Source: a phage
Reading direction: 5' to 3' (one strand)
Length of the DNA: 64,000 bases
Sequence record: PZ296772.1
In this document: positions 6,190 through 61,295 of the stretch, one piece after another
How positions within the stretch are numbered: position 1 is the first letter of the stretch
Layout: each line of letters starts with the position of its first letter
Translations under genes and position numbers: made by a program
Notes under the pieces: model-generated
What the model was told of the DNA's origin: nothing
What the model saw: only the letters and a program-made list of their open reading frames with translations
Databases searched by the model: none

Positions 6190-6663
6190 ATGATTATCAA
6201 TGAAAACTCTTGGCACTATAAAATTTATGCCGCATTCAATAGTACATGGAATCGTCCGAAAACATTATGTGCTTATTTTTGGAAAACGTTTATTCCGGTA
6301 TTAGCTGTTTCGATTATTGGATTTGCGATTTTAGCAGCAGCCACAATCATTGGCCAGGAAATTTTAACTAAATTCTTTGTTTTTAGCAGTCTATGGACAT
6401 TAGTTCCAGCCTCAATTGGTATAGGCATTTTAACAATATCAGTAATGGTTCTTATTGCTGTCGGGGCGGTAATTGGTCCATCTTGGTTGTTAGACAAATA
6501 TAACGACAGAAAATATTATAAAGAAATTGAGCTCATTGCACAAAACCAAGAACGAATTAAAAATGGACTTGGGCCTATTGAACGTAAGAAATCATTAATA
6601 GGTGAATACCTTAAAGCTCGTAAAGAAAAAGTCTGTCCTACCCTTGAATATAAGGCTAAATGA
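6190..6663 (+). CDS. membrane protein
   Basis: Two or three predicted transmembrane segments. Confidence 0.5.
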   Translation: MIINENSWHYKIYAAFNSTWNRPKTLCAYFWKTFIPVLAVSIIGFAILAAATIIGQEILTKFFVFSSLWTLVPASIGIGILTISVMVLIAVGAVIGPSWLLDKYNDRKYYKEIELIAQNQERIKNGLGPIERKKSLIGEYLKARKEKVCPTLEYKAK

Positions 6664-10869: not shown

Positions 10870-11829
10870 ATGGCTTTTATTACACGTAGAGAACTTATCA
10901 AAGAATTTACCTCGAACGCATATACTCCAGGACCTAATCCTATCCGTATGCCTGTAAAGACTCCTGAAGAGATTGAGGAAATCTGTTCATATTATGGGAT
11001 TAATTCTCGTATGTTTACTCAATTTGAATGCGTTACTAACACACCCGTTAAAGAGTTCATTAAAAATGGTGAGTTCAGCCGTTTATTAGCCAAACAGAAA
11101 CTTCGTAATTTTTGTATCGGCGGCTGCGGACAATATTTTGCTAAACAGTTCCGAAATAACCTTAACAATCTGATGGCCATTGCTTCTCGTATTCGTCCTC
11201 AAGCAATTAACATGAAACATTTGAAATATACTTACGATAAGTTAGAAATCATGGTTATCAGTGAGAATGAGTTCACTCTTACATATAAACCTAAGAATGA
11301 TAACGTTGCTCGTGTATTCCACCAAGCGCTAGAAGTGTTAGGCGATAATATCCATGAGATTAAAGCAATTTATTCTCGTGAGCTTAATATTATCGACCCT
11401 ATCAAGAATAAGGGCCATATCGCTATCCAGGCTCGTGTATCTATTGGTAAAAAGGTTCCTGCGCCATGGTGGCACAAAGACTCTGAATACTATCAAAATC
11501 TTAAAAAGGAAAATGCATTGTTTGAAGGCAATATTACAGCAACACCAGTCGGTAATGCAGAGGTTCTAGGCGCATATTCTCCAGCACAATCTGGTATGTT
11601 TAAAGGTTTGCCAAATGTGTGCAAACTGTCGGCAGTAAAACTAAATGTTTCTAATGACCTTCTTCCGGCAGAAGATTATCATTACAACCAAATCAAGGCT
11701 ACTGTAGACCAACTGTCCGTTGAACTTGACAAAGCACAAGCTAAGCTTCGTGATGCTCAAAGTGTTGTAACGAATCTCCAGTTGCAGTATTCTAAACTTT
11801 TTAATGCAATGAATGCATTAAAATCATAA
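10870..11829 (+). CDS. hypothetical protein with C-terminal coiled-coil
   Basis: 319 aa; C-terminal LDKAQAKLRDAQSVVTNLQLQYSKL. Confidence 0.5.
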   Translation: MAFITRRELIKEFTSNAYTPGPNPIRMPVKTPEEIEEICSYYGINSRMFTQFECVTNTPVKEFIKNGEFSRLLAKQKLRNFCIGGCGQYFAKQFRNNLNNLMAIASRIRPQAINMKHLKYTYDKLEIMVISENEFTLTYKPKNDNVARVFHQALEVLGDNIHEIKAIYSRELNIIDPIKNKGHIAIQARVSIGKKVPAPWWHKDSEYYQNLKKENALFEGNITATPVGNAEVLGAYSPAQSGMFKGLPNVCKLSAVKLNVSNDLLPAEDYHYNQIKATVDQLSVELDKAQAKLRDAQSVVTNLQLQYSKLFNAMNALKS

Positions 11830-11891: not shown

Positions 11892-12842
11892 ATGACACGT
11901 TCACATTACATTGAATACTTTGCCGGGCTTATCGCTAACGTTCATGCCCAGCGCGCTTCTGGTGCACTAGGATTTGATGTTCCACACCGAGATGTAGTAA
12001 GTGGTATTCTTCGTGATTTTGGTACATACACAGGTCAAGAAAATCATATCTGTAAAGATACTCAAAATGCATATTCTCATTCATTAGGGACACTGCTTCA
12101 ATGGTTCAAACGTTCTCGTTTATTATCTTCTACTGTAGCTCGTGATAACATCAAAAACTTTATGAAGCCGAGCTTTATTAAATCTGTGACATCTAAAACC
12201 GATTTGGTTGAATTCACTATTGTTAATGATGTTAAAAAGACTCATTTGGCTGATTGGTTATCTACCATTCCTGAAACTAAATTTGCTGATAAATTTGCTT
12301 GTGAATTCAATAACCAAGTGAATATGCTTTTTAAACATTCTCGTAAATTATTCACGGGCGGTGATGGTCGTACAAATAAAGTTCATGTTAAAGATTGGGT
12401 TACTGCAGTATTCAAACCAACCGGTAATGGTAACGCATCATTATCAATTGATATCCAGGTTCCTTATTACTACTCACGTAATCTCGGTACCATGAAAGCT
12501 GAAGAAATTAATAAGCATAACAAAACCGTTCGTTCGTTGTCTTATAAACTTATTACATTGTTAGAGACTATGGATGTTGTTGAAACGTTCGACGAGTCCG
12601 AAGATAACGGTTCAATGTTATACAGTTCTCGCACCCGAATTAAGCTGAGGAACCCTAACGAGTATAAACTTAAGACTATTAAAGAACCTAAAGTAGAAAA
12701 AGTTGACAACTTGAGCGAAGAACGTGAGTACCTCAAATCTCGTCTGAAAGAAGTCGAAGCCCAGATTAAAGAACAGACTAAATCGTTAAAAGCTCTGAAT
12801 GCGAAAGCGGATGGTTTACGAAATGCCATTGAGGTGTTATAA
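11892..12842 (+). CDS. hypothetical protein with C-terminal coiled-coil
   Basis: 316 aa; C-terminal EEREYLKSRLKEVEAQIKEQTKSLKALNAKADGLRNAIEVL. Confidence 0.5.
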   Translation: MTRSHYIEYFAGLIANVHAQRASGALGFDVPHRDVVSGILRDFGTYTGQENHICKDTQNAYSHSLGTLLQWFKRSRLLSSTVARDNIKNFMKPSFIKSVTSKTDLVEFTIVNDVKKTHLADWLSTIPETKFADKFACEFNNQVNMLFKHSRKLFTGGDGRTNKVHVKDWVTAVFKPTGNGNASLSIDIQVPYYYSRNLGTMKAEEINKHNKTVRSLSYKLITLLETMDVVETFDESEDNGSMLYSSRTRIKLRNPNEYKLKTIKEPKVEKVDNLSEEREYLKSRLKEVEAQIKEQTKSLKALNAKADGLRNAIEVL

Positions 12843-15707: not shown

Positions 15708-16241
15708 CGATTGAAAAAGAAATTGAAGGACTAATTCATAAAACTAATAAAGACCTTTTAAACGAGAATGCTAATAAAGATTCTCGTGTTTTTCCAACTC
15801 AACGGGACCTTATGGCTGGTATTGTGTCTAAACACATTGCCAAAAATATGGTCCCGTCTTTTATTATGAAAGCGCATGAAAGCGGAATTATCCATTTCCA
15901 CGATATTGATTATTCCCCTGCTCTTCCATTTACTAATTGCTGTTTAGTAGATTTAAAAGGAATGCTTGAGAACGGATTTAAGCTCGGTAATGCACAGATT
16001 GAAACTCCTAAATCAATCGGCGTTGCTACTGCAATTATGGCGCAAATTACTGCACAGGTTGCTTCCCACCAATATGGCGGAACGACTTTTGCGAATGTAG
16101 ATAAAGTACTTTCTCCTTATGTTAAACGCACCTATGCAAAACATATTGAGGATGCAGAAAAATGGCAAATCGCTGATGCGTTGAATTATGCTCAATCTAA
16201 AACAGAAAAAGATGTATATGACGCGTTTCAGGCGTATGAGT
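15704..16241 (+). CDS. nrdD: anaerobic ribonucleoside-triphosphate reductase NrdD, exon 1
   Basis: ORF interrupted by an in-frame stop 2 codons past the predicted 5' splice site; P1 pairing defines the exon end. Confidence 0.8.
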
Positions 16242-16452
16242 TAATTTAATTCAGGCTCATGTAAAACCGGTCTAAACGGGGAACCTCTCTAGTAGACAAT
16301 CCCGTGCTAAATGTTCTTTTGAACTAAATGCCTAACGACTAACCGTGATGAATGTAGCGGTGTAGAATAGAAGCTAATGCTATTCGAAACGGCCGGCATC
16401 GAAAGATGAAGATATAGTCTAATCTGCATGGCGACATGCAGCAGTCATCTTG

Positions 16453-16460
16453 TATAAATA
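16453..16460 (+). promoter_or_regulatory. T4-type late promoter TATAAATA inside intron
   Basis: Exact TATAAATA about 30 nt upstream of the endonuclease ATG. Confidence 0.45.
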
Positions 16461-16489
16461 AGATTATCTTATGAATACGAGGTGAAACA

Positions 16490-17260
16490 ATGAAATGGAT
16501 AAAAAGACGTTGTACTAAAATAAAAGATAAAGACGCATTTACATACTTAGTTAAGTTTTCTAATGGCGACATTTATATCGGTTATAAAAAATTTAGAACA
16601 ATTAAAAACAAGCCCACAAACTGGAAAACTTACACAACGTCATCTAAGTATATAAATGAACGCTTAAAAACTGATACACCTACTAAATGGATAATTTTAA
16701 AAACATTTGATAGTTATAAAGATGCATTAAAACATGAAGAAGAGGTCATACGTAAATATTTTTATAGCAAAAAATGTTTAAATAAATCCATAGGCGGTAA
16801 AAAGTTTTATAAGCATCCGGATACTGAAGAACATATTCAAAAATTAAGAGATGCTCATAAGGGTAAAGTGTTATCCGAATCTCATAAAAACAATATAAAA
16901 TCTTCTGTGGCTGAATATTATGCTAAAAACAGAAGATCTAAGGAACATGTGCAAAATAATATCAATAGTCGAAAAAGTAAAAAACAAGTATCGATAAAGC
17001 TTAAAAATAAAACTTTTAGAAGTTTTAAAAAAGCAGCGGAATATTTAAATTGCACTGAAAGTGAAGTCGAAACTCATCCTCTTGTTTTGAGTATTAAGAC
17101 TACTATTCATAAAGTTCCTGAATATGTGGTTGTTGACGGTATTAAGTATACGTCTTATATAGAAGCAGCTAAAGCGCTAAATTTTCATCCTAGCACTATA
17201 AAAGAACGTTGCATATCTATGGACTATCCAAATTTTGTTGTTTCATATAAACGGGCATGA
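16490..17260 (+). CDS. intron-encoded GIY-YIG homing endonuclease (I-TevII-like)
   Basis: 256 aa in the 3' part of the intron; GIY-YIG-like TYLV..DIYIGY; NUMOD3-like basic repeats (HKGKVLSESHKNNIKSS); C-terminal HTH-like IKYTSYIEAAKALNFHPSTIKERC. Confidence 0.75.
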   Translation: MKWIKRRCTKIKDKDAFTYLVKFSNGDIYIGYKKFRTIKNKPTNWKTYTTSSKYINERLKTDTPTKWIILKTFDSYKDALKHEEEVIRKYFYSKKCLNKSIGGKKFYKHPDTEEHIQKLRDAHKGKVLSESHKNNIKSSVAEYYAKNRRSKEHVQNNINSRKSKKQVSIKLKNKTFRSFKKAAEYLNCTESEVETHPLVLSIKTTIHKVPEYVVVDGIKYTSYIEAAKALNFHPSTIKERCISMDYPNFVVSYKRA

Positions 17261-17274
17261 ATTTGCGACTCATG

Positions 17275-18566
17275 CTGAATATAATGATGAAGTAAATACA
17301 CTTTTCAGCTCTAATGGTCAAACGCCTTTTGTAACAATTACATTTGGTACGGGAACTGACTGGACTGAACGAATGATTCAGAAAGCAATTCTGAAAAATC
17401 GTATTAAAGGTCTTGGTCGTGATGGGATAACTCCTATTTTCCCTAAGCTTGTTATGTTCGTTGAAGAAGGTGTTAATCTTTATAAAGATGATCCGAACTA
17501 TGATATTAAGCAGCTTGCTTTAGAGTGTGCAAGCAAAAGGATGTATCCTGATATTATTTCAGCTAAGAACAATAAAGCTATCACTGGTTCATCTGTTCCT
17601 GTTTCTCCAATGGGTTGCCGTAGTTTCTTGAGCGTATGGAAAGATTCGACTGGTAATGAAATTCTTGATGGACGTAATAATCTTGGTGTTGTAACACTGA
17701 ATCTTCCTCGCATCGCGTTAGATTCTTATATTGGAACACAGTTCAATGAACAGAAATTTATCGAATTGTTCAATGAACGAATGGATTTATGTTTTGAAGC
17801 TTTGATGTGTAGAATTAGTTCCTTAAAAGGAATTAAAGCTACTGTTGCTCCTATTCTTTACCAAGAAGGTGCATTCGGGGTTCGTCTTAAACCCGATGAC
17901 GATATAATTGAGTTATTTAAAAACGGTAGAAGTTCAGTGTCTTTAGGATACATTGGTATTCACGAATTGAATATTCTTATCGGTCGTGATATTGGACAAG
18001 AAATTTTAACTAAAATGAATGCTCATCTTAAACAGTGGACTGAAAGAACTGGGTTTGCTTTTAGTTTGTATTCTACTCCTGCTGAAAACCTTTGCTATCG
18101 CTTCTGTAAACTTGATACAGAAAAATATGGAAGTGTAAAGGATGTTACTGATAAAGGTTGGTACACTAACAGTTTCCATGTTTCAGTAGAAGAAAATGTT
18201 ACTCCGTTTGAAAAGATTTCTCGTGAAGCGCCATATCATTTCATTGCGACAGGTGGTCACATTTCTTATGTTGAACTTCCTGATATGAAAAATAACTTAA
18301 AAGGTCTTGAGGCTGTATGGGATTATGCCGCACAACATTTAGATTATTTTGGTGTTAATATGCCAGTAGATAAATGTTTTACATGTGGAAGTACCCATGA
18401 AATGACTCCTACTGAAAACGGATTTGTTTGTTCTATTTGCGGAGAAACTGATCCTAAAAAGATGAATACCATAAGAAGAACATGTGGTTATTTGGGAAAT
18501 CCGAACGAACGCGGATTTAATCTCGGTAAAAATAAAGAAATCATGCATAGGGTTAAACACCAATGA
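17275..18566 (+). CDS. nrdD: anaerobic ribonucleoside-triphosphate reductase NrdD, exon 2
   Basis: NGQTPFVTITFG; zinc ribbon CFTCGS...CSICGE; C-terminal glycyl-radical motif RRTCGYLG. Confidence 0.85.
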
Positions 18567-21909: not shown

Positions 21910-22133
21910 GCGTATTAACAGAAACTTTGATTAATGACCTGCGTCTAGCTGGTTACGAAGTTGGTACAAATAGCCTAGGTCTTCCTCAGATTGAAGGTCC
22001 TGGATTTATTCTAGAATATGAATTCAAACAATGGTGGTTATATGCTACGGTTGACGATGCGTTGAATATTGATTTCGTTGACCAATTTGATTCGCTGGAT
22101 GCTGCTCTTGAAGCAGCAAAGGAACTAGAATGA
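21906..22133 (+). CDS. hypothetical acidic protein
   Basis: 75 aa, coupled start. Confidence 0.4.
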   Translation: MSVLTETLINDLRLAGYEVGTNSLGLPQIEGPGFILEYEFKQWWLYATVDDALNIDFVDQFDSLDAALEAAKELE

Positions 22134-22399
22134 AATTAACTCGAATCAGTATAACTGAAGAAAAGCTTGGCGAATTTTATGTTGACGAATACATGAAAGT
22201 CACGTATTTTCCATTCGTTAAAGGTGTTGGTTTTTGGGAAACTCATGTATCTCAATTAAACGAAGGCGACTATAACGAAACACATGAGAACTTTTTAGAT
22301 TTTCTTTATAATGCCGGTCTTACTGAGCTTTATATCGATATCCATGAGTTCAAACGTTTAATGGAAAAAGTGTTTCAGGCTTATTGTTTGCTCCGATAG
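22130..22399 (+). CDS. hypothetical protein
   Basis: 89 aa, coupled start. Confidence 0.4.
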   Translation: MKLTRISITEEKLGEFYVDEYMKVTYFPFVKGVGFWETHVSQLNEGDYNETHENFLDFLYNAGLTELYIDIHEFKRLMEKVFQAYCLLR

Positions 22400-22406
22400 T
22401 ATCTCG

Positions 22407-22442
22407 TGCTTTAAGATAGGTCTCTAAATATTATGATATAAT
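22407..22442 (+). promoter_or_regulatory. promoter-like region upstream of gene 55
   Basis: TGCTTTA Mot-box-like element, ataggtct/agacctat inverted repeat and TATAAT. Confidence 0.4.
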
Positions 22443-22471
22443 AGACCTATGAATTGAGCCAAGAGGTACTT

Positions 22472-23029
22472 ATGACTGAACAAAAACCTAAAAATAACTA
22501 TGTGAATAATAAAGAGCTTCTCGCCGCTATAATCGAGTGGAAAAAGGAGCTCTTAAATAATAAAGACCCAAACAAAATTATTCGTCAGAATGATACCATC
22601 GGTTTAGCAATTATGCTTATCGCCGAAGGCCTGTCCAAACGTTTCAACTTTTCAGGATATACCCAGTCTTGGAAGCAGGAGATGATTGCAGATGGGATTG
22701 AAGCCTCTATTAAGGGACTTCATAATTTCGACGAAACTAAGTACAATAACCCACATGCATACATAACTCGAGCTTGTTTTAATGCTTTTGTCCAACGTAT
22801 CAAAAAAGAACGTAAGGAAGTTGCAAAGAAATATAGTTACTTCGTTCATAATGTCTACGACAGTCATGACGATGATATGGTAGCGTTGGTAGATGAAACG
22901 TTTATTCAAGACATCTACGATAAAATGACGCATTATGAAGAATCCGCTTATAAAGCTCCTGGGGCTGAAAAGAAGGAAGTTGTTAGCGATTCGCCTAGTT
23001 TGGATTTTTTATATGAGGATGACAATTGA
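22472..23029 (+). CDS. 55: late-transcription sigma factor gp55
   Basis: Start moved to ATG after AAGAGG; 185 aa as in T4; N-terminus [23 protein letters not shown] matches recalled T4 gp55. Confidence 0.8.
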
Positions 23030-23228
23030 CATCTCTAACTACTTAGAAGAACCTTTTGACGAAGCAATCCCTTATTTGGTAAAACTGTTGGGTCGTGAAT
23101 TTAAAATTAATTTTGACATCGACCCTTTGAACCCACATGACGTGTCATTTTCGATAAATGGGACTCCGGTTGAGTATGAGTTCTGTATTGAAGAGGATGG
23201 ACGTTTTTATTTTAATTTAATGAGATAA
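23019..23228 (+). CDS. hypothetical protein
   Basis: Internal ATG start overlapping the gp55 stop. Confidence 0.35.
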
Positions 23229-23229
23229 T

Positions 23230-23553
23230 ATGACTACCGAGATTATTGAAAATAAAGAAGCAGAAGATGCAGTAGCTAAAATGCTACAAGAAATCCAAAA
23301 GAAAAATGAAGCTGAAGCACGTAAAAAATCCGAAAAGATTCTTAAAAAGAATCGTTTTGAACTAAACCGTCTTTATGCTCATGCTCAAGAAGCAGCAATT
23401 CAAAACAACTTCGAAGCTTACGAATATGCTATTAAGAAATCTCGGGATATTCTACGACAACCATATAATGACAAGTTAATTAAAATCCAGTGGGTTACTA
23501 CTCGTCAGGCTATTGAGGACATCATTAATGGCGCTAGTTCAAACAAAGTTTAA
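23230..23553 (+). CDS. hypothetical protein
   Basis: 107 aa, charged and helical. Confidence 0.45.
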   Translation: MTTEIIENKEAEDAVAKMLQEIQKKNEAEARKKSEKILKKNRFELNRLYAHAQEAAIQNNFEAYEYAIKKSRDILRQPYNDKLIKIQWVTTRQAIEDIINGASSNKV

Positions 23554-23773
23554 ACGATTGAAGCTGAACGCAGGGTTCACCCTTAAATTGGGAGGTCCTC
23601 TTTGTGTTAAAATCTCTGAAAAGGAATATCACGACAGTTCTATTACAGAAATTTGTCCACCTATTGTAAAGGCAGACCCAAAACAACTCGTGTGGGTTGA
23701 TTCATTTCAAGTTAAGAAATGGTGGAAACGATGAGAGAAATCGATTTAGGCATTTTCTGAGAGGTGATTATGC

Positions 23774-23947
23774 ATGACGAACATCCCGACTTCTGAAAAT
23801 TTCGATAAAATCCGTAAAGGCAAAGCAGAAAGAATGAGACGTTTTAAAGAGTCTTATGATAAAGCTAAAGCCGAAGGAACTATTACGTACAAGCCCATTC
23901 GATTTAAAAGTTCAAATGAGCCTCTGTACGGTGTACTATGTGGATAG
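23774..23947 (+). CDS. hypothetical small protein (below ORF-track threshold)
   Basis: 57-aa ORF MTNIPTSENFDKIRKGKAER... with GAGAGG RBS, ending at a strong terminator. Confidence 0.3.
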   Translation: MTNIPTSENFDKIRKGKAERMRRFKESYDKAKAEGTITYKPIRFKSSNEPLYGVLCG

Positions 23948-23970
23948 GAACTCTTCGGAGTTCCTTTTTT
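23947..23970 (+). terminator. rho-independent terminator
   Basis: ggaactc-TTCG-gagttcc followed by T6. Confidence 0.65.
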
Positions 23971-24016
23971 GCTTTATAAACGGATGATAGAATGAATTAA
24001 CTAATGAGGAAATAAT

Positions 24017-25036
24017 ATGAAAATTTTGCACTTAGGCGACTTCCATATCGGAGTCAAACAAGACGACCCATGGGTTCAAGATATTCAACGTGATGGTATT
24101 CGTCAAGCAATTGAATACTCTAAGAAACACGGGATTAAAACTTGGATTCAGTACGGCGATTGGTTTGACGTCCGTAAAGCAATAACACATCGTACAATGG
24201 AATTCAATCGTGAAATCGTTGATATGATTTCTAAAGCAGGCATTCACGTTCATGTCACGATAGGAAACCATGACATGGCGTTTAAGAATACAATAACACC
24301 TAACACTGTTTCTGAATTGTTAACTCAATTTGAAAACTTTACTATTTACGAGCGTCCGACTACTGTAGATTTTGACGGATGTCTGATTGATATCGTTCCA
24401 TGGATGTGTGAAGAAAATACAGGTGAAATCTTAGAGCACATCAAGACTTCTTCCGCAGCGTATTGTGTTGGGCACTGGGAACTGAACGGCTTTTATTTCT
24501 ATAAAGGAATGAAGTCTCATGGGCTTGAACCTGATTTCTTAAAGACCTATAAACAAGTCTGGTCCGGCCACTTCCACACAATCTCTGAAGCTGCTAACGT
24601 CAAATATATTGGGACACCATGGACCCTTACTGCAGGCGATGAGAACGACCCACGCGGATTCTGGGTATTTGACACTGATGTTGAACGTATGGAATTTATT
24701 CCTAATGAAACAACATGGCATCGACGAATCACTTATCCGTTTAAAGGCAAAATCAATTATTCTGATTATACTAATCTAGCCGTACGTGTTATAGTATCAG
24801 AAATTGATTCAGAGTTGACTAAGTTTGAATCTGAACTTGAAAAAGTAGTTCACTCTCTTCGTATGGTTTCTAAAGTTGATAACAGTGTTGAATCTGATGA
24901 TGACCAGGAAATCGAGATTAAATCACTTCAAGATATCATTAAAGAATATATTGACGCGATTCCAGATATCTCAGACGAAGACAGAGAAGCGCTGGTCAAA
25001 TATTCCAACGAACTTTATATTGAGGCAACACAATGA
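24017..25036 (+). CDS. 47: recombination endonuclease subunit gp47 (Mre11-like)
   Basis: 339 aa; phosphoesterase motifs LGDFHIG, GDWFD, IGNHD, GHWE; matches recalled T4 gp47. Confidence 0.9.
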   Translation: MKILHLGDFHIGVKQDDPWVQDIQRDGIRQAIEYSKKHGIKTWIQYGDWFDVRKAITHRTMEFNREIVDMISKAGIHVHVTIGNHDMAFKNTITPNTVSELLTQFENFTIYERPTTVDFDGCLIDIVPWMCEENTGEILEHIKTSSAAYCVGHWELNGFYFYKGMKSHGLEPDFLKTYKQVWSGHFHTISEAANVKYIGTPWTLTAGDENDPRGFWVFDTDVERMEFIPNETTWHRRITYPFKGKINYSDYTNLAVRVIVSEIDSELTKFESELEKVVHSLRMVSKVDNSVESDDDQEIEIKSLQDIIKEYIDAIPDISDEDREALVKYSNELYIEATQ

Positions 25037-25290
25037 CTTTAGATGAATTTAACAATGCTGGGCTCGGGCTTGAAGTTGAAATAGACGTTAAAGATGATGA
25101 TGGATTCGAGAACACCATCAAGTATTGGATTGAGCCATTACGCGTTGAAGGCAATGAAGTTAAAGCAGTTCATGTCTGCACCGACTGGGCTATTGAATTT
25201 AGCTTTAATATAATGGACAACGATACTCCCGGCTCTATTCTTAAAATGGCTGAAGCGTGTATCGAGGATGCGTATAATGACGAAGACTGA
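25033..25290 (+). CDS. hypothetical acidic protein
   Basis: 85 aa, coupled start. Confidence 0.45.
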   Translation: MTLDEFNNAGLGLEVEIDVKDDDGFENTIKYWIEPLRVEGNEVKAVHVCTDWAIEFSFNIMDNDTPGSILKMAEACIEDAYNDED

Positions 25291-33409: not shown

Positions 33410-34045
33410 ATGAAAACTACTCCTATTACTATCGCTATTGACGCAATCATAAAACAAGCTTCTTCTTTGGCCGCTATGGCCAAAGTAATTAGTCAAAACC
33501 CTGCTCGTTATAATGCTATTCTAGAAACTCTTCGACGCCCGGGACTTAGTAATTATGAAAGCCGAGTAATTATTACAGGTGTTGGTAAGAATGCTAATAT
33601 TGCAACTAAAGCTTCTGAGACATTTGCTTCACTCGGTATCCCGAGTATGTACTTGAACACCGGGCACTATTCTCACGGTGATGCAGGATTTATTGCGCCT
33701 AATGATGTATTAGTTCACATCAGTCGTTCTGGTAAGACTGAAGAAATGATAGGTGTTGCTAAACATCTTCGTATGATTCGTCCTCAGGTTAAACAGATTC
33801 TGTTACATTGTAACCCTGACATTCCACAAGAATACGAAGCTCTTTTTGATTATACGTTCTGTACCGGTATCGCGGTAGAAGTTGACGAGAACTCTTTAGC
33901 TCCGACAATGTCAACCACATTGTTGTTAGCGCTTATCGATACGTTCGCTATCAACCTTTCGTCTGAGCGTGGATTTACCTCTAATGACTTCCTTAAGTTC
34001 CACCCTGGTGGTGCACTAGGTGCCATGTTACGAGGCGAACAATGA
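33410..34045 (+). CDS. SIS-domain sugar-phosphate isomerase (arabinose-5-phosphate isomerase-like, no CBS domains)
   Basis: SIS motifs GVGKNANIATKA, HISRSGKTEE and C-terminal FHPGGALG typical of KdsD/GutQ/KpsF isomerases. Confidence 0.65.
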   Translation: MKTTPITIAIDAIIKQASSLAAMAKVISQNPARYNAILETLRRPGLSNYESRVIITGVGKNANIATKASETFASLGIPSMYLNTGHYSHGDAGFIAPNDVLVHISRSGKTEEMIGVAKHLRMIRPQVKQILLHCNPDIPQEYEALFDYTFCTGIAVEVDENSLAPTMSTTLLLALIDTFAINLSSERGFTSNDFLKFHPGGALGAMLRGEQ

Positions 34046-34185
34046 AAGCAATAACAATAGGACTTTTACTATTGATGCTTGTCATGACTATCTACTGGAG
34101 CTTAACGGCTCCAGTAATGATTCCAACACTTGTAATTGGATGGATTATGATTGGTCTACAGGCAAAGTATGAATGCTTTAACTAG
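34042..34185 (+). CDS. small hydrophobic protein (below ORF-track threshold)
   Basis: 47-aa ORF MKAITIGLLLLMLVMTIYWSLTAPVMIPTLVIGWIMIGL..., two transmembrane-like segments, coupled start. Confidence 0.3.
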   Translation: MKAITIGLLLLMLVMTIYWSLTAPVMIPTLVIGWIMIGLQAKYECFN

Positions 34186-34226
34186 AATAGTGTACAATAC
34201 ATCTACTTACCAATGAGGACCACAAC

Positions 34227-35912
34227 ATGAAAAAAGCTGTTATTCTTGGTGCTGGACTGGCAACTCGTTTGTATCCAATAACGCATCATATTCCAAAAGT
34301 TCTTGTGAACTATAAACAAGACACTATTCTGAGCAATTTGTATACAATTTATTCTGACCTTGGCGCAGATGAAATTATTGTAGTAGTTCATTCAAAATTT
34401 GCTGAAACTGTTCGAGCTTATTGTGAGCAAGAAGGGTTCAATGTGACTATTCGTACAGTTGATGAAGCGTATGGTTCTGCTTATGCTCTTGCTAAATTAC
34501 ACAAAGATTTAGACGGCCATAATGTAATTGTTAACTGGTGTGATATTATTCCTGATTTTGGTTCATGGTCTTGGAATGTTAACGCAATCTATGTTAAGGG
34601 TGACGAATGTCGGTATAATTTCGACGGTGAAAATATCACTAACGTAGGTTCAACAGGTGGTAATGTTGTAGGAATTTATCAGTTCAAAGACTGGGAATTC
34701 TATATGGGTTCTACTGATGAGGAAATTCATGAATACTGCAAAGGACGCGATTTCGTAGAATTCCTTTACAGCGGCGCATTCAATAAATCAGAGCTTATGA
34801 ATCTAATTGATTTAGGTGATATGCCTAAACTTGAAAAAGCTCATGAAGTTCGTGAACTTAATCGTAGTTTTAATGCAGTTGAAATTGGTGAAGAAACTGT
34901 AACTAAATTCGCATTAACCGAACAGGGTCGAGCTCTTCAGAAAGATGAGATTTCATGGTATCTTAAAGTGAAATCAGATTCAGTTCCTCAGTTAGTTTCT
35001 GTAAATGAAAATAACTTTGAAATGGAACGTATTAAAGGTAAGCCGGCATTTGAATATATTAAATCCAAATCAAGTCTTGCTCGTCCACAAATTGTTGATG
35101 CAATTTTAGATGCACTAAAATTCAGCACAGACACGTATTTTGTAAGTCCTGAAACTGTTCGTCGTGATTTCACTAAAGAATTCTATACGAAAGTTATTGA
35201 TCGTTGTGAAAGCATTCAGCCATTGATTGATTCATTTGGTAAAATCACACACGTGAACTACACTAAGATTGGACGTCTGAAGCCAATGCTGAAACAAGCT
35301 TTAGAACACCTTATTCGTTATCATAACCGTTCTCAGGGACAGTACTCTGTTATTCATGGTGACCCGAACTTCAGTAATACTATGATTACTGATAACGGCG
35401 AAGTCAAGTTTATCGACCCTCGTGGATATTTTGGCGAAACCAAGATTTACGGGCCAAAATTGTATGATGAAGCTAAAGTGCTTTATGCTGTTTCAGGTTA
35501 TGATGAATTCAATGCTAATCCGACCTGGGGACAGTTTACTATTGATGAAACAACTTGTAATGTGACTATTAACATCAATCCATTAATTTACAAATATGGA
35601 AAGATGAGTTCGTTTAACGAGTATCATCATTTGGCTGTAGCAATTATCTGGATTGCATTAGGTGGTTATTTCAAGAATAATCCACTTAAAGCGGTAGCCG
35701 CATATTATAAAGGTATGGAACTTCTGACTAAGCAATTACGTAACATGGGCCGTGTACTTCAAGATGGCTCTATTAGTTATGACGTAGCAGAACCTGTAAC
35801 GGCTACTCTGATTACAAAAAATCCTGGTAAATGGGTACTAACTGATAAAGAAACTGGTGTTTCCTATCGTCCAATCGGTGGCGATATCACTCATCAATGG
35901 GAACGAATCTAA
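34227..35912 (+). CDS. bifunctional sugar-1-phosphate nucleotidyltransferase / APH-type anomeric sugar kinase
   Basis: N-terminus ILGAGLATRLYPIT (NTP-transferase G-x-G-T-R-L); C-terminus kinase catalytic loop VIHGDPNFSNTMI and metal-binding FIDPRG. Confidence 0.6.
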   Translation: MKKAVILGAGLATRLYPITHHIPKVLVNYKQDTILSNLYTIYSDLGADEIIVVVHSKFAETVRAYCEQEGFNVTIRTVDEAYGSAYALAKLHKDLDGHNVIVNWCDIIPDFGSWSWNVNAIYVKGDECRYNFDGENITNVGSTGGNVVGIYQFKDWEFYMGSTDEEIHEYCKGRDFVEFLYSGAFNKSELMNLIDLGDMPKLEKAHEVRELNRSFNAVEIGEETVTKFALTEQGRALQKDEISWYLKVKSDSVPQLVSVNENNFEMERIKGKPAFEYIKSKSSLARPQIVDAILDALKFSTDTYFVSPETVRRDFTKEFYTKVIDRCESIQPLIDSFGKITHVNYTKIGRLKPMLKQALEHLIRYHNRSQGQYSVIHGDPNFSNTMITDNGEVKFIDPRGYFGETKIYGPKLYDEAKVLYAVSGYDEFNANPTWGQFTIDETTCNVTININPLIYKYGKMSSFNEYHHLAVAIIWIALGGYFKNNPLKAVAAYYKGMELLTKQLRNMGRVLQDGSISYDVAEPVTATLITKNPGKWVLTDKETGVSYRPIGGDITHQWERI

Positions 35913-36298
35913 TGCATCGTGTAGAAAACATGCTTAATCTTTGTTTTGATGTCGACGATTGTATAACAGAGTGGAATAACAATCGTGATTACGTGAACTT
36001 CAAGCCAGACGTCGAAATGGTGACTGCCATTAATGCCCTGTATGATGCAGGGCATACCATAACGCTTTACACTGCTCGTGGTATGAAGTCAGTAGGTCCT
36101 GGACGTATAGCAATTGACATTCTACCGAGTCTGATTCAGAACTTGGAAAACATTGGTTTGAAGTACCATAATTTGCTAACACATAAACCAGTATATGATT
36201 GGATTATCGACGACAAAGCTATGCGTCCTGACGAATTCAAAGCTCTTATGAATAAAGGCGAATTCGAAACATTTAAATCATATAAACCGAACCTATAA
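35912..36298 (+). CDS. HAD-like phosphatase (small)
   Basis: Start at ATG overlapping upstream stop; motif I CFDVDDCIT (DxDx-). Confidence 0.4.
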   Translation: MHRVENMLNLCFDVDDCITEWNNNRDYVNFKPDVEMVTAINALYDAGHTITLYTARGMKSVGPGRIAIDILPSLIQNLENIGLKYHNLLTHKPVYDWIIDDKAMRPDEFKALMNKGEFETFKSYKPNL

Positions 36299-36346: not shown

Positions 36347-37516
36347 ATGCAAAAAATGAATACTTTTAAAATCGGAACGAATTTTGATTTAGCTCTTCTT
36401 GATAAAATCGTAGAGCTCAATAAAACTTATCCTAATAGCTTGATAAACGAAGTGTACGGCTCTACAAGAGAAATGGCTTTTGTAGCAGCCAGACCTGATT
36501 TTAGGCTTCCTGACGTTGACAAAAAGATGTTAGAAGATTACGTTAAACGTTGTAACGAATTAGGTATTTGCTTTAACTATACACTCAACACGATAAATCC
36601 TGGTTCAAAAAGAGAACTAGTTGAGTGGAAGAAGAAAGCTATTCAGGATTATGTTCAGTATCTTTGGTCAATAGGCGTATGGCGTATTACTATCGCTAAC
36701 CCTGTTGTTATGGAAATTGTTCGTGAAGTAAATAAAGACATTGAGATTGAAGTTTCAACAATTCTACATGTTGATGCTGTAACTCAAATCAAATACTTGC
36801 ATGACCAATATAATATCAAAAAGGTCTGCTGTGGAATTCATAAGAACCGTTCAGTTTCTTTCCTGAAGCGTGCAGCAGAGTTTTGCAATAAGAACAATAT
36901 AATATTTGAAGTTCTTGTAAATGAGTTCTGTTCTAATGCTGGTAAAGGGTATACAACACATTGTAGCTATCGTGACTCTTGCTATATTTTCCATAGTACT
37001 GATGTTACAGCTGATGATGCTAAATCCTTAAATGGATATCCAATGCAGCACTGTATTAAAGCTCGTGATACAGACCCATTTAACTGGTTGAGAACTCGTT
37101 TTGTTCGTCCTCAAGATTTGAAACTTTATAATGATATTGGTATCACTCAATTCAAAGTTTCAGGACGTACAGGTAGCACAGACTACATTTTGAAAGTTCT
37201 TGAAGCATACGCTTCTGAAAAGTTTGAAGGTAATTTGTTAGAACTGTGGAAGCCTTTAGAGACTATTTTCACTCTTGAAAACGAAACCGAGTTTTCACAT
37301 ACAGTAAATATTGAAACCTCTTTGTTAGATGGCTTTTTAGAAAAAAGGTGGTTCAGACATCCAGATTTCGATTGTGCTAATGAAATCTGTGGGACGACGT
37401 GTACATATTGTGAAAGATATTATAAACGTCAGTTATCTAAAAACGGGTTAGCAGAAAACTCTATATCTATTATTGATATAACTAACTCTGATGACGCTTT
37501 GAGGTACCCGGAATGA
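36347..37516 (+). CDS. peptidase-U32-family-like protein (putative Fe-S enzyme)
   Basis: Central region resembles recalled U32 pattern (FNYTLNTI...GVWRITIANPVVMEIVRE...IEVSTILHV...NRSVSFLKRAAE); multiple Cys (CSNAGKG..HCSYRDSC, CANEICGTTCTYC). Confidence 0.35.
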   Translation: MQKMNTFKIGTNFDLALLDKIVELNKTYPNSLINEVYGSTREMAFVAARPDFRLPDVDKKMLEDYVKRCNELGICFNYTLNTINPGSKRELVEWKKKAIQDYVQYLWSIGVWRITIANPVVMEIVREVNKDIEIEVSTILHVDAVTQIKYLHDQYNIKKVCCGIHKNRSVSFLKRAAEFCNKNNIIFEVLVNEFCSNAGKGYTTHCSYRDSCYIFHSTDVTADDAKSLNGYPMQHCIKARDTDPFNWLRTRFVRPQDLKLYNDIGITQFKVSGRTGSTDYILKVLEAYASEKFEGNLLELWKPLETIFTLENETEFSHTVNIETSLLDGFLEKRWFRHPDFDCANEICGTTCTYCERYYKRQLSKNGLAENSISIIDITNSDDALRYPE

Positions 37517-37794: not shown

Positions 37795-38511
37795 ATGGGA
37801 AAACATAACACAATGAAATATATCAAAGCCGCAGATTTTCAAGCCGCATTTAAAGCAGTCAATCGTGAAATTTTAGAAAACCCAGAATTCGTAACTGATT
37901 CTCGTATTGGACGTTGTAATGAAATTGGGTCTATGACAGTAGTTGTTGACACTCCATCATCATTCAAAATGACCGACCCACGTATTAACCGCATCTCTTA
38001 TGAATATGCTGAAGACTTCTGGAAGTTTATGATTTCTGGTGGTACTGACGCAGAAGAAGCGTTTAAGGCATACCCTAATGTCGCTAAATTTATTTCTAAA
38101 CCCAAATCAGACGCTTTGCCGGCGAACTTCAACACTTTCTATGGTCCTCGCATTGCGGCCCAATTACCAGCTCTTCTAAAAGAACTTAAAGAGAAGCCTA
38201 ACTCTCGAAGAGTTGTGTTCCAAATTCTAGAAAGTTCTGATCAGGCTTTGCTTGATTCGGACGAAACGCTTGAATATCCATGTACTGACTCAGTGACTTA
38301 TTATATTCGTGATGGTAAGCTTTATACCCACTGTCATATGCGTTCTCAGAACTGTGCTGTTGTTATGCAGTTGGATTTTTATCTCCAAGGAAAATTACTT
38401 CATTATATCGCTAACGAATGCGGTGTAGAAGTAGGTGATTATACTCATACCATGGTAAGTGCCCATGTGTTTGAACGTGATTTTGATTATGTTAAAGGAT
38501 TCCTTGACTAA
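37795..38511 (+). CDS. 42: dCMP hydroxymethylase (divergent)
   Basis: Thymidylate-synthase fold: nucleophile YPCTD, then HMRSQNCAVVMQLDF with Asp where TS has the PFNIAS Asn; T4 gene 42 position. Confidence 0.65.
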   Translation: MGKHNTMKYIKAADFQAAFKAVNREILENPEFVTDSRIGRCNEIGSMTVVVDTPSSFKMTDPRINRISYEYAEDFWKFMISGGTDAEEAFKAYPNVAKFISKPKSDALPANFNTFYGPRIAAQLPALLKELKEKPNSRRVVFQILESSDQALLDSDETLEYPCTDSVTYYIRDGKLYTHCHMRSQNCAVVMQLDFYLQGKLLHYIANECGVEVGDYTHTMVSAHVFERDFDYVKGFLD

Positions 38512-39410
38512 TGGCTATTTTCCGCGTACCTATCTTGAGTATGCGGTCTTATGAAACTGGACAGTATGCTATCCTTAAGGATGGCAACTTCCAACTTCAT
38601 TTGCACCGTGCTAATCCAGGTGATGTGATTACATATCCACGTAATGCATCTGATATTAAAGAATGTGAACGTCTTTTCCCGGAATTTAAGTTTGTTCCAT
38701 TATGGTATAAAGATAACGCGTATAACACTCGTAAATATTTCTGGTCTGAAAATGAATTTGTGGTTGATTCATTAATTGCTTATTATGATTGTGATTTTCT
38801 AATCACAGATATCACTGGATATGATGGCGCTTTTGACGTAGAATTCAATTTCAATATCACTGCAGACCCTAATAAACCACGTTTTTATATTGATGAATTC
38901 TTAAAAACCGACATGTTGTCTGTTAATCGTTCAATCCAAACAACTGTGTTGAATAAACGTCAAAAGGAAGTGCTGGTTAACGCTGGTGCCGATGGTAATA
39001 AGATTATCGTAACGCAGAAAGTTATACGTCCTTCCGTCATGCAGCGTCTTGTAGGTGATTTGGCTCCTATTCATCTAGATGGTATTTTTCATCCATTTCG
39101 AATTAGTGACCCATGCTATCGTTTTGAACAAGTTGTTGAATGCGCAATTCAATTAGGTCAACCGCTTTATATAACTGATCCAAATAATAGTTTCGACAGA
39201 AATAAGTATCCTGAAGAAGCGCTGATTCGAATTTTTAATCCAACTAAAACTGAGTACTATCAAATTCTTAAAGGACGTCCGAAGATTCAATATTTCGAAA
39301 ATCCTGAAGAAGTATTCCATCCAGGTCTTGGTGAGTTCATCTACTTTAATGCTTTAATTTCTTCACCGTATAATATACCTAAATACGAAGATGTCGTAAT
39401 CGAGGAATAA
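38511..39410 (+). CDS. hypothetical protein occupying the T4 beta-glucosyltransferase position
   Basis: 299 aa, coupled to the gp42 stop; no recognisable similarity to recalled T4 beta-gt. Confidence 0.45.
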   Translation: MAIFRVPILSMRSYETGQYAILKDGNFQLHLHRANPGDVITYPRNASDIKECERLFPEFKFVPLWYKDNAYNTRKYFWSENEFVVDSLIAYYDCDFLITDITGYDGAFDVEFNFNITADPNKPRFYIDEFLKTDMLSVNRSIQTTVLNKRQKEVLVNAGADGNKIIVTQKVIRPSVMQRLVGDLAPIHLDGIFHPFRISDPCYRFEQVVECAIQLGQPLYITDPNNSFDRNKYPEEALIRIFNPTKTEYYQILKGRPKIQYFENPEEVFHPGLGEFIYFNALISSPYNIPKYEDVVIEE

Positions 39411-39411
39411 A

Positions 39412-39960
39412 ATGGCTAAAATTATTTTAGTAGATGGCCCGGATAATGCCGGTAAAACAACTTTCATTAATGACGTAATGGAAATTAGTGAAAGATATGT
39501 AAAGATTGATTTCCCTAAACGAACAATTGATGGACGTTTCGATGTTAAGTCTCGAAATGAAGTTGGCTGTTTCGAAACGATGTTGAATTATTTAGACCCT
39601 ACTAAGATTTATCTGTTAGACCGTGGATATATTAGTAACTGGGTTTATGGACGTATTCGACAAGATGCGGACTCAGTTCTTGACGTTTATGAACAGGATT
39701 ATGTTCGTCTTTGCCAAAACCATGATGTGTTCACAATTATTTTAACACGTAACGAAATGACTGAAAGTTTTGAAGACGACCTTATTACTTTGTCTTCATT
39801 AGGTTTTAATACAGTCATTTCATATTTTGAAGAGTTTGCAATTCATAACAAAATCCAAACGTATCAATTACTTAATCATGATGGTGCTAACAAAGTTATA
39901 GGATTTAATGCAAGCGAACGTAATAATTTGATTACAGAAATCATCAAATGGGCTCGTTAA
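39412..39960 (+). CDS. P-loop nucleoside/nucleotide kinase-like protein
   Basis: Walker A VDGPDNAGKTT; LLDRGYISNWVYG resembling the dNK/TMPK DR(Y) motif. Confidence 0.5.
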   Translation: MAKIILVDGPDNAGKTTFINDVMEISERYVKIDFPKRTIDGRFDVKSRNEVGCFETMLNYLDPTKIYLLDRGYISNWVYGRIRQDADSVLDVYEQDYVRLCQNHDVFTIILTRNEMTESFEDDLITLSSLGFNTVISYFEEFAIHNKIQTYQLLNHDGANKVIGFNASERNNLITEIIKWAR

Positions 39961-45353: not shown

Positions 45354-45354
45354 T

Positions 45355-48035: not shown

Positions 48036-48557
48036 ATGGCACACTTTAACGAATGTTCACAACTTATTTCTGGTGTTGATAAAGCAGAAGAAGCTTATTT
48101 TAATGCTCTGATTCACGAAGATAAAGACCCACTGCAGGTAATGCTTGATATGCAGAAATCTTTACAGGTTCGTTTGGCAAATGATAAGCCTGAACATAAC
48201 AAACATCCTGATGAATTGGCTACTGCCGGTGATGTTGTTGATTGGCTGCGTAATCAGAAAGATTATATTGATGATGAATTCCGTGAACTGCTGACTTCAC
48301 TTGGCGGTATGAGCAATGGTGAAAAAGCCGCTAGCTCTGTATGGAAGCCGTGGAAAGCACAACATGCTGAATATCGTAATCGTCGTATCGATGAACTGTC
48401 TCCTGAAGACCAGCTTGAAATTAAATTCGAGATGATTGACATCCTCCACTTTGTTCTGAATATGTTCCAAGGTCTGGGTCTTTCTGCTGAAGAAATCTTT
48501 AAACTTTACTACTTGAAAAACCAACACAACTTTGAACGCCAGGATAACGGTTACTAA
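48036..48557 (+). CDS. 56: dCTP pyrophosphatase gp56 (MazG-like)
   Basis: Start moved to ATG after AAAGGAAA; MAHFNEC, DPLQVMLDMQ, TAGDVV.W, IDDEFRELLTSLG, LEIKFE..DI.HFVLNMF match recalled T4 gp56. Confidence 0.85.
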   Translation: MAHFNECSQLISGVDKAEEAYFNALIHEDKDPLQVMLDMQKSLQVRLANDKPEHNKHPDELATAGDVVDWLRNQKDYIDDEFRELLTSLGGMSNGEKAASSVWKPWKAQHAEYRNRRIDELSPEDQLEIKFEMIDILHFVLNMFQGLGLSAEEIFKLYYLKNQHNFERQDNGY

Positions 48558-60194: not shown

Positions 60195-61295
60195 ATGAAA
60201 GTTATGTTTATCCCATCTCGTGCAGTCCCATTTAATCCTGACCGTGTACAAGGTGGACTTGAAGCAGTACATTTAAATGTGTTGAAATATCTTGTGTCCA
60301 TCGGTGCTGATATTGATTATATCGGCTTTGATAATGACACGTTTGGTGACTGGAAAGTTACACACCATCCTGTTGGTCATCTGACTAAATTCAGTCTAGG
60401 TATGAGTTATACTATGGCTCGTAAGATTGTTGAACTAGCCGGCATCCATGAATACGATTTTGTTGTTACTATGGAACCGACTAAACTAACCGTCCAAGCA
60501 ATTAAAGACGCAGGTCTCTCTAAAGTTCATAAGAATTTTATGGCTACGCCATTTGAACCGGTGTCTCGTGGTATTGTTCAAATTTGGGATCAGACTATCC
60601 AGATTCACAAGAACGGTGGGAAGAGCTATGCTCCTACTAAAGCCTTCCGTGAATTTGAACGTAAATATTGTCATATGACTTCAGCTCTTACTGACAAAAT
60701 TGATTATGACTACTGGCGTGAAAATCCATTATTTGAACCTGATGACTACCCGGTTATTTGTTTGAATGAAAAACCTGAAGTTCTTCCGGCAACTGATTTG
60801 ATTATTAGTGCTCAACGTTATGACACTAAGATGCGTCGCACTGATGTTGCTCTTGAAGCAATTAAAGCACTAGGCGAAAATGGTATTGGTTATTGTCCAA
60901 GCAAATGGGCACCACCAGCTAAATATCCTGTTATTATTGATGCTCCACACAGTGAAATCATGGAACGTCTTAAAACAGCTAAAGCACTTATTAATACATG
61001 TCCTGACACAGGTACGGTAGAGAATAGTTCTATTGAAGCCATCTCTAAAGGTGTCCCTGTAATCCAGTTAGTTTTTAAGGATTATCCTCATGCGACATTC
61101 GAATACGACCCAGATACTGTGCGTGTAGAAATTGATTCCTCTACTCCTAAGAAAGAAGTAGTTGCGCTTTACACAAAAGCTGTATTAGAATTCACTGACA
61201 CATACAAAGCTCGAGTTAAACGTGCTGAAGCAGTATGGAAGAAGTATAATCGAGATGCAGTTGTTGCGATGTGGGATAAAATCTTCACAGCGTAA
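60195..61295 (+). CDS. GT-B-fold glycosyltransferase (candidate DNA hmC glycosyl/arabinosyl transferase)
   Basis: 366 aa; N-terminal MKVMFIPSRAVPFNPDRVQGGLEAVHLNV and C-terminal ENSSIEAISKGVPVIQ resembling the GT4/GT-B donor-binding motif; between 39 and rIIA. Confidence 0.55.
   Translation: MKVMFIPSRAVPFNPDRVQGGLEAVHLNVLKYLVSIGADIDYIGFDNDTFGDWKVTHHPVGHLTKFSLGMSYTMARKIVELAGIHEYDFVVTMEPTKLTVQAIKDAGLSKVHKNFMATPFEPVSRGIVQIWDQTIQIHKNGGKSYAPTKAFREFERKYCHMTSALTDKIDYDYWRENPLFEPDDYPVICLNEKPEVLPATDLIISAQRYDTKMRRTDVALEAIKALGENGIGYCPSKWAPPAKYPVIIDAPHSEIMERLKTAKALINTCPDTGTVENSSIEAISKGVPVIQLVFKDYPHATFEYDPDTVRVEIDSSTPKKEVVALYTKAVLEFTDTYKARVKRAEAVWKKYNRDAVVAMWDKIFTA

Follow-up and report, generated by a model that had tools for sequence, protein, structure and literature searches.

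The genes 55 and 47 of phage T4 flank a segment that includes the gene for its 400-aa alpha-glucosyltransferase (a-gt). In the stretch of phage DNA analysed here (64,000 nucleotides of sequence record PZ296772.1, referred to as the window) no such gene was seen at this position, and the question is whether its absence means that the DNA of this phage is left without a sugar. The source of the window is a Mosigvirus, an RB69-like T-even coliphage. Positions 22000–25100 are 99.3% identical to Mosigvirus vB_EcoM_NBG1 and mar005P1, placing the region nearer to the species Mosigvirus mar005p1 than to RB69. The same positions align as one place, over at least 80% of their length and with 95–99% identity, to 147 phage records, RB69 among them, and the layout is therefore no artefact of a single isolate. 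A missing a-gt is a known hallmark of Mosigvirus (PMC6024577), a genus in which glucosyl-hmC is not made, and both the lack of glucosyltransferases and an arabinose-based route have already been published (Thomas 2018; Lee 2026; He 2026).

Organization of the region between genes 55 and 47

The following features were identified in this part of the window.

22472..23029, + strand: gene 55, late-transcription sigma factor (90.7% identical to T4 gp55 over 182 aa; same CDS annotated in NBG1)
23019..23228, + strand: a-gt.5 homologue, 69 aa (46.6% identical to T4 a-gt.5, E 1e-14; Pfam DUF5491; phrog_1169)
23230..23553, + strand: a-gt.4 homologue, 107 aa (57.7% identical to T4 a-gt.4, E 2.5e-32; Pfam DUF2654, E 1e-27)
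23528..23734, + strand: a-gt.3 homologue, 68 aa (72.3% identical to T4 a-gt.3, E 5e-30; phrog_1648)
23774..23947, + strand: a-gt.2 homologue, 57 aa (75.9% identical to T4 a-gt.2, E 3e-24; Pfam DUF5486, E 4.5e-28)
23946..23971, + strand: predicted intrinsic terminator (8-bp stem, UUCG loop, U6 tail; terminator scan)
23948..24016, + strand: spacer of 69 bp from the end of a-gt.2 to gene 47 (T4 annotation and junction alignments)
24017..25036, + strand: gene 47, SbcD-like recombination nuclease subunit (75.8% identical to T4 gp47 over 339 aa; Pfam Metallophos)

The distance from gene 55 to gene 47 is 987 bp, which excludes a gene of 1.2 kb. The biggest ORF of the interval is the a-gt.4 homologue, sharing an overlap of 26 nt with the a-gt.3 homologue. 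On the − strand of the interval there is no ORF of more than 50 aa, and an Rfam scan of 22000–25200 found no structured RNA at E 1 or better. The predicted terminator overlaps the stop codon of a-gt.2 and has the G+C-rich hairpin and U run of an intrinsic (Rho-independent) terminator. Its hairpin (23946–23965) reads AGGAACUC-UUCG-GAGUUCCU, followed by U6, and folds with −13.9 kcal/mol (z-score −4.05). A terminator is annotated at the same place in NBG1, and T4 and RB69 also conserve it. The original prediction, made from the sequence, that this interval holds nothing other than ORFs of 107 aa or less and a strong terminator was thus confirmed. The locus is a variable one, of which the window has the short form.

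Search for glucosyltransferase genes

The T4 alpha-gt, T4 beta-gt and T6 beta-alpha-gt proteins were used as queries against the whole window, using tblastn and phmmer --max with six-frame ORFs of at least 60 aa. No homologue of alpha-gt was found (best E 2.7 by tblastn and 0.56 by phmmer --max), nor of beta-gt (best E 0.9–1.8) or beta-alpha-gt (best E 0.55–7.6). The slot in which a-gt would be expected, between the end of a-gt.2 (23947) and the start of gene 47 (24017), contains no gene and is only 69 bp long. Outside the window the check covered the relative NBG1, namely its other 124 kb (44.6–168.9 kb). There the best match of alpha-gt had an E of 0.05 over 69 aa, which is not a homologue, and beta-gt and beta-alpha-gt gave nothing at E 1 or better. 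The earlier claims that alpha-gt is missing between genes 55 and 47, and beta-gt from the window, were accordingly upheld, with no copy found elsewhere in the window or in this part of NBG1.

In a phage collection, matches to alpha-gt with at least 90% identity came from Escherichia coli and Shigella phages and those in the 60–80% band from Klebsiella phages, with no Mosigvirus among the 60 matches listed; beta-gt was found in only 126 records. An a-gt pseudogene remnant between genes 55 and 47 was rejected, as tblastn returned no fragment at E up to 10 and the interval is filled by a-gt.5 to a-gt.2. Five ORFs considered as hidden transferases (6660–7649, 7743–8744, 9819–10814, 10870–11829 and 11892–12842) were also rejected, as Pfam and PHROGs assign them to unrelated or unknown families with no glycosyltransferase signal; none has similarity to a-gt, b-gt or ba-gt.

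Probable genes for the arabinosylation of 5-hydroxycytosine

The RB69 genes gp45 to gp55, ORF003c and gp56 are all represented in the window, and the arabinosylation genes are the same as those of RB69, with protein identities of 94–100%. The gene products relevant to the modification of cytosine are as follows.

33410..34045, + strand: arabinose-5-phosphate isomerase, RB69 gp55 homologue (97.6% identical to RB69 gp55; Pfam SIS domain; role from PMC13326640)
34227..35912, + strand: bifunctional sugar kinase/UDP-arabinose pyrophosphorylase, RB69 gp52:53, HY126 AfhE-like (98.6–99.4% identical to RB69 gp53 and gp52; role from PMC13326640)
35912..36298, + strand: HAD-like sugar phosphatase, RB69 gp51, HY126 AfhF-like (97.7% identical to RB69 gp51; role from PMC13326640)
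36347..37516, + strand: Peptidase-U32-like protein, RB69 gp50 (99.5% identical to RB69 gp50; Pfam Peptidase_U32)
37795..38511, + strand: thymidylate-synthase-family 5-hydroxy-dCMP synthase (99.6% identical to RB69 gp48; Pfam Thymidylat_synt; T4 gene 42 position)
38511..39410, + strand: glycosyltransferase 1, RB69 gp46:47, single ORF of 299 aa, proposed first arabinosyltransferase (GT-B fold)
39412..39960, + strand: thymidylate-kinase-like nucleotide kinase, RB69 gp45 (96.7% identical to RB69 gp45; phrog_761 thymidylate kinase)
48036..48557, + strand: gene 56, dCTPase (97.1% identical to RB69 gp56; Pfam dUTPase_2)
60195..61295, + strand: glycosyltransferase 2, RB69 ORF003c, proposed second arabinosyltransferase (97.5% identical to RB69 ORF003c)

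The genes for UDP-arabinose synthesis span 33410–36298, and the bifunctional enzyme is encoded by a single ORF of 561 aa with an NTP_transferase match in Pfam at its N-terminus and kinase-like matches at its C-terminus. The product of 37795–38511 is only 24.8% identical to T4 gp42, the dCMP hydroxymethylase. It is near-identical to PDB 9IQC/9IR2 (E 4.5e-162), and RB69 gp48 has been shown by experiment to make 5-hydroxy-dCMP (PMC13326640). Glycosyltransferase 1 fills the slot of T4 beta-gt, between gene 42 and uvsX. The gene for glycosyltransferase 2 sits between gene 39 and rIIA, and 360 of the 366 residues of its product (98.4%) are those of PDB 9IQZ/9IR0, a crystal structure entitled ‘phage HY126 glycosyltransferase with UDP’; its source paper, cited in PMC13326640, is He et al. 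(Nat Chem Biol 2026). Pfam gave no match for either glycosyltransferase at E 0.01, and both assignments are proposed on the basis of fold and of near-identical characterised relatives. A deep homologue search with glycosyltransferase 2 covered 1.84 billion representatives and returned only 15 matches at E ≤0.001, of which about 10 are clear relatives. Of the Mosigvirus system, the 5-hydroxy-dCMP synthase, the UDP-arabinose genes (97.6–99.4% identical to those of RB69) and two GT-B transferases were all found in the window. Gene content, homologies, the GT-B fold of glycosyltransferase 1 and the lack of any glucosyltransferase homologue are direct observations on this DNA.

Proposed modification pathway

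It is very likely that the window encodes a complete route to arabinosyl-5-hydroxycytosine of the RB69/HY126 type. The phage has no need of an alpha- or beta-glucosyltransferase, because the modification of its cytosine uses this other route. In the proposed pathway, dCTPase (gene 56) and the flavin-dependent thymidylate-synthase homologue would lead from dCMP to 5-hydroxy-dCMP, which would be phosphorylated and then incorporated in DNA instead of C. UDP-arabinofuranose would be supplied by the arabinose-5-phosphate isomerase, the bifunctional kinase/uridylyltransferase and the HAD phosphatase. The GT-B enzyme encoded at 38511–39410 would place the first (alpha) arabinose onto the 5-hydroxyl, and that encoded at 60195–61295 may add a second (beta-1,3) arabinose. 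The activity of the synthase, the arabinose chemistry and the matching of steps to enzymes come from papers on proteins of 97–99.6% identity. The order of the transferases is a hypothesis even in the published work on the RB69-type pathway, and the DLP3 counterparts of the RB69 transferases, when purified singly, were inactive on 5hoC DNA (PMC13326640).

All components of the pathway described for RB69, HY126, NP and DLP3 (Thomas 2018; Lee 2026; He 2026; Mahler 2025) are present in the window with no material difference, and the gene order of these phages is kept from gene 43 to uvsX and from gene 39 to rIIA. DLP3 has three transferases, whereas the window has two, from which mono- and di-arabinose would be predicted and not tri-arabinose. 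Mono- and di-arabinosylated cytidines have been identified by MS and NMR in the DNA of the Mosigvirus phages RB69 and NP (chemistry and enzymology in PMC6024577, PMC13326640 and PMC13390438), and we infer that the present phage would likewise make mono- and di-arabinosyl-5-hydroxycytosine. Nothing in the sequence of the window speaks against this explanation.

It had originally been predicted that glucosylation of hydroxymethylcytosine (hmC) is not encoded in the window. This stands as regards the transferases, for which there is no homologue, but the modified base itself is, judging from the synthase, very probably not hmC. The implied lack of DNA glycosylation is contradicted by the two GT-B glycosyltransferases and the UDP-arabinose pathway of the same window. 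DNA glycosylation is encoded, with another base and another sugar than in T4, and the absence of a-gt is no sign of unglycosylated DNA.

Alternative explanations

The lack of homologues of alpha-gt, beta-gt and beta-alpha-gt, alongside a gene-42-like thymidylate-synthase homologue and a dCTPase, is what would be expected of a phage whose DNA contains hmC without any sugar on it. Such a phage is nevertheless highly improbable, given that the gene-42 homologue shares 99.6% identity with RB69 gp48, whose product is 5-hydroxy-dCMP and not hmdCMP, and only 25% with T4 gp42; the two transferases and the UDP-arabinose pathway, as well as the arabinosylated cytidines of RB69 and NP, also stand against it. 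Still less probable is that glucosylation persists by means of a glucosyltransferase of an unrecognised family, encoded among a-gt.2 to a-gt.5 or other ORFs of unknown role. The four small genes are without known function and several ORFs of at least 300 aa in the window are without Pfam annotation, but no nucleotide-sugar transferase would fit into 57–107 aa, a-gt.2 to a-gt.5 are equally conserved in T4, which owns its transferases, and the sugar reported in published analyses of Mosigvirus DNA is arabinose and not glucose.

Equally remote is a fresh deletion or degradation of a-gt in this isolate, whether made in the laboratory, simulated by an assembly gap or still visible as a pseudogene remnant. 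The spacer before gene 47 does look as if the terminator modules on either side of mobB and a-gt in T4 had been fused into one, a pattern that recombinational deletion would leave. Against a recent event, the interval yields no a-gt fragment (tblastn, E up to 10) and the same short form occurs in the 147 independent phage records, RB69 included, at 95–99% identity; any loss of a-gt would therefore be ancient and fixed in the genus, and not specific to this isolate. The preferred explanation remains the arabinosyl-5-hydroxycytosine route.

Comparison with related phages and possible origin of the empty slot

The corresponding region of RB69 (RB69p067–p071) has the same order, 55, a-gt.5, a-gt.4, a-gt.3, a-gt.2, terminator and 47, with a junction that is almost base-for-base identical. 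T4 shares the flanking genes, the four small genes (46–76% identity) and a UUCG-type terminator after a-gt.2, but between a-gt.2 and gene 47 it has 2,283 bp, compared with 69 bp in the window, which encode mobB (an HNH homing endonuclease), the alpha-glucosyltransferase and 47.1 (46 aa). There is also a second, similar terminator module at the far end of the T4 segment, whereas the window has one terminator. Klebsiella phage RCIP0032 and Erwinia phage Cronus (Roskildevirus) have the same order of 55, four small ORFs and 47, with CUUCGG-type terminators. Unlike the window, with its empty slot and single terminator, both carry alpha-gt in the slot (66% and 56.5% identical to that of T4, respectively), between two terminators and without mobB.

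In every a-gt-bearing genus examined (T4, RCIP0032 and Cronus), a-gt lies between a pair of similar terminator modules with CUUCGG loops, and a T run and GCTTTAT come after each module. Only one such module is left in the window; its left half matches the T4 copy upstream of mobB and a-gt and its right half the copy downstream of a-gt. Junction alignments agree with this, the left half of the spacer corresponding to the T4 sequence after a-gt.2 and the right half (CGGA..TGATAgAATGA) to that after a-gt. It is possible, if short of probable, that an ancient recombination between the short terminator repeats, in an ancestor of Mosigvirus, removed a-gt precisely and left the empty slot as its scar. 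Such an excision would coincide with a switch of that ancestor from glucosyl-hmC to arabosyl-5-hydroxycytosine chemistry. If this is true, repeated terminators could be the borders of cassettes by which T-even phages exchange modification genes.

For annotation, the absence of alpha-gt and beta-gt from a T-even-like genome should not be taken to mean unglycosylated hmC DNA; for Mosigvirus, arabinosylated 5-hydroxycytosine is to be expected. With this modification, the phage is open to attack by a different set of restriction enzymes, Type IV systems, CRISPR nucleases and DNA glycosylases, a point that bears on phage therapy and on the cloning or sequencing of such DNA. This biology has been in print since 2018 and was refined in 2025–2026, and the finding adds no new knowledge to it. 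A difference to RB69 concerns gp46/gp47 and gp52/gp53: split in that phage, each pair forms one ORF in the window (299 and 561 aa, respectively), in agreement with the published view that the splits of RB69 are sequencing errors.

Gene Content of the Interval between Genes 55 and 47

The 3.1 kb at 22000-25100 of the window share 99.3% identity with Escherichia phages vB_EcoM_NBG1 (hereafter NBG1) and vB_Eco_mar005P1, both of the genus Mosigvirus, species Mosigvirus mar005p1, and 147 phage records each align to this query at one place, over 80% or more of its length. The window runs in reverse of the T4 map, with the gene order nrdG (18563), 55, 47, 46, 45, 44, 62, regA, 43, uvsX, 41, 61, 56, dda, 39 and rIIA (61601-63814). 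Genes 55 and 47 are separated by 987 bp, filled by four small genes homologous to those of T4:

22472-23029, + strand, gene 55 (90.7% identity to T4 gp55)
23019-23228, + strand, a-gt.5 homolog, 69 aa (46.6% identity, E 1e-14; Pfam DUF5491)
23230-23553, + strand, a-gt.4 homolog, 107 aa (57.7% identity, E 2.5e-32; Pfam DUF2654)
23528-23734, + strand, a-gt.3 homolog, 68 aa (72.3% identity, E 5e-30; no Pfam match)
23774-23947, + strand, a-gt.2 homolog, 57 aa (75.9% identity, E 3e-24; Pfam DUF5486)
24017-25036, + strand, gene 47 (75.8% identity to T4 gp47)

All four small gene products matched PHROG families and three matched Pfam families, each of unknown function, and no ORF on the opposite strand exceeds 50 aa. 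A terminator hairpin, AGGAACUC-UUCG-GAGUUCCU followed by U6 (23946-23965; -13.9 kcal/mol, z = -4.05 against shuffles), begins within the a-gt.2 stop codon. The same genes and terminator are annotated at matching positions in NBG1, and no family was matched in an Rfam scan of the region. The original prediction, that this interval contains only ORFs of up to 107 aa and a strong terminator, was accurate. For gene 55, the mechanically called ORF opens at TTG 22454; ATG 22472 fits T4 gp55, the NBG1 annotation and the start first proposed.

Search for Glucosyltransferase Genes

The T4 alpha-glucosyltransferase (alpha-gt), T4 beta-glucosyltransferase (beta-gt) and T6 beta-alpha-glucosyltransferase gave nothing better than E 1.8 against the window by tblastn, and a best E of 0.55 against its six-frame ORFs of at least 60 aa by phmmer with all filters off. 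The predicted lack of alpha-gt between genes 55 and 47, and of beta-gt from the window, was thus borne out by both methods. Nor was either gene found elsewhere using NBG1 (44.6-168.9 kb) as a proxy genome, where the best match of alpha-gt was at E 0.05 over 69 aa and beta-gt and beta-alpha-gt had none at E 1 or better. Among 50,697 phage records, alpha-gt homologs occurred in 657, with bands of at least 90% identity (Tequatrovirus-type phages of E. coli and Shigella) and 60-80% (Klebsiella phages), and beta-gt homologs in 126; no Mosigvirus was among the matches listed for either. This outcome agrees with the report that RB69 has no identified homolog of the known glucosyltransferase genes (Thomas et al., 2018; PMC6024577). 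The absence of both genes is a published hallmark of Mosigvirus.

Comparison of the alpha-gt Slot with Other Phages

From the a-gt.2 stop codon to the gene 47 start codon there are 2,283 bp in T4, comprising mobB (an HNH homing endonuclease), alpha-gt (400 aa) and 47.1 (46 aa), whereas the window has 69 bp, a short form shared nearly base for base with RB69. The mobB-to-alpha-gt segment of T4 is flanked by two similar modules, each made up of a hairpin with a CUUCGG loop, a T-rich stretch and GCTTTATA, in that order. Klebsiella phage RCIP0032 and Erwinia phage Cronus (Roskildevirus) carry alpha-gt in the same slot without mobB (66 and 56.5% identical to that of T4, respectively), likewise bracketed by two CUUCGG-loop terminators with GCTTTAT-like sequence after them:

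T4 (locus L002), 36585-36625 and 38684-38732
RCIP0032 (locus L009), about 3428-3460 and 4697-4766
Cronus (locus L010), about 3436-3500 and 4697-4739

The window has a single, hybrid-looking module (23946-23990), in which the left portion can be aligned to the module behind a-gt.2 in T4 and the right portion (CGGA..TGATAGAATGA) to the one behind alpha-gt. Given this one copy and the two terminators bracketing alpha-gt in the three other phages, it is plausible from sequence comparison that recombination of terminator repeats long ago removed the gene from the Mosigvirus lineage. Such short repeated terminators may represent borders of an alpha-gt gene cassette.

Arabinosylation Genes and the Modified Base

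The window contains homologs of all RB69 genes from gp45 to gp55 and of ORF003c and gene 56, with protein identities of 94-100%:

33410-34045, arabinose-5-phosphate isomerase (gp55 homolog)
34227-35912, NTP-transferase/kinase fusion, 561 aa (gp52:53 homolog)
35912-36298, HAD-like phosphatase (gp51 homolog)
36347-37516, U32-like protein (gp50 homolog, 99.5% identity)
37795-38511, thymidylate-synthase homolog (gp48 homolog)
38511-39410, 299-aa protein (gp46:47 homolog)
39412-39960, kinase (gp45 homolog)
48036-48557, dCTPase (gp56 homolog)
60195-61295, 366-aa protein (ORF003c homolog)

The SIS, NTP_transferase, U32 and thymidylate-synthase assignments were supported by Pfam. The 366-aa protein shares 360 of its 366 residues with the 'phage HY126 glycosyltransferase', known from crystal structures in the presence of UDP (9IQZ, 9IR0). 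The 299-aa and 561-aa products are each encoded by one unbroken ORF, which supports the published claim that the gp46/gp47 and gp52/gp53 splits of the RB69 reference are sequencing errors. The peptidase-U32-family protein lies mid-cluster; the literature offers only a guess for the gp50 type, a 'sugar or heterocycle reductase'.

The thymidylate-synthase homolog is 99.6% identical to RB69 gp48 but only 24.8% to T4 dCMP hydroxymethylase, and matched PDB 9IQC and 9IR2 at E 4.5e-162. RB69 gp48, which binds flavin, produces 5-hydroxy-dCMP with oxygen from O2, and in RB69 DNA, beta-D-Araf-(1-3)-alpha-D-Araf is attached to 5-hydroxy-dC rather than to hmC (Lee et al., 2026; PMC13326640). In Mosigvirus NP, mono- and di-arabinosylated cytidines occur at a ratio of 1:4 (PMC13390438). 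No third copy of either transferase (299 or 366 aa) was found in the searched parts of the NBG1 genome, a result consistent with the addition of two arabinoses and not three. In what order the two transferases act, and on which substrates, is hypothetical in the papers cited. The further claim that the window encodes no glucosylation of hmC is literally true, with no glucosyltransferase homolog present, but the base is most likely 5-hydroxycytosine, and DNA glycosylation is encoded, with arabinose as the sugar. The observation on the interval was confirmed and its interpretation partly supported.

Intron in nrdD and Other Features

The nrdD gene is broken by a 1,045-bp insertion (about 16242-17286) absent from NBG1, which contains a group I intron core (16210-16441; Rfam RF00028, 73.2 bits, E 2e-18) and a 256-aa GIY-YIG/NUMOD1 homing-endonuclease ORF (16490-17260), resembling the T4 nrdD intron carrying I-TevII. 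Substitutions are clustered in the flanking exon sequence, in what looks like a co-conversion tract. Rfam returned nothing for the whole window at the gathering threshold, as speed filters on long input hid the real match; a local scan (16150-17400) placed the intron well above the gathering score.

A 219-aa product of the 61.x region (45346-46005) gave a full-length match to Pfam AdfA (Anti-DarT factor A; E 5e-121), identifying an anti-defence gene. Outside the window, NBG1 134520-135512, adjoining the dCMP deaminase gene, is annotated as a 330-aa '2-keto-3-deoxy-D-arabino-heptulosonate-7-phosphate synthase', a sugar-phosphate enzyme unusual for a T-even phage.
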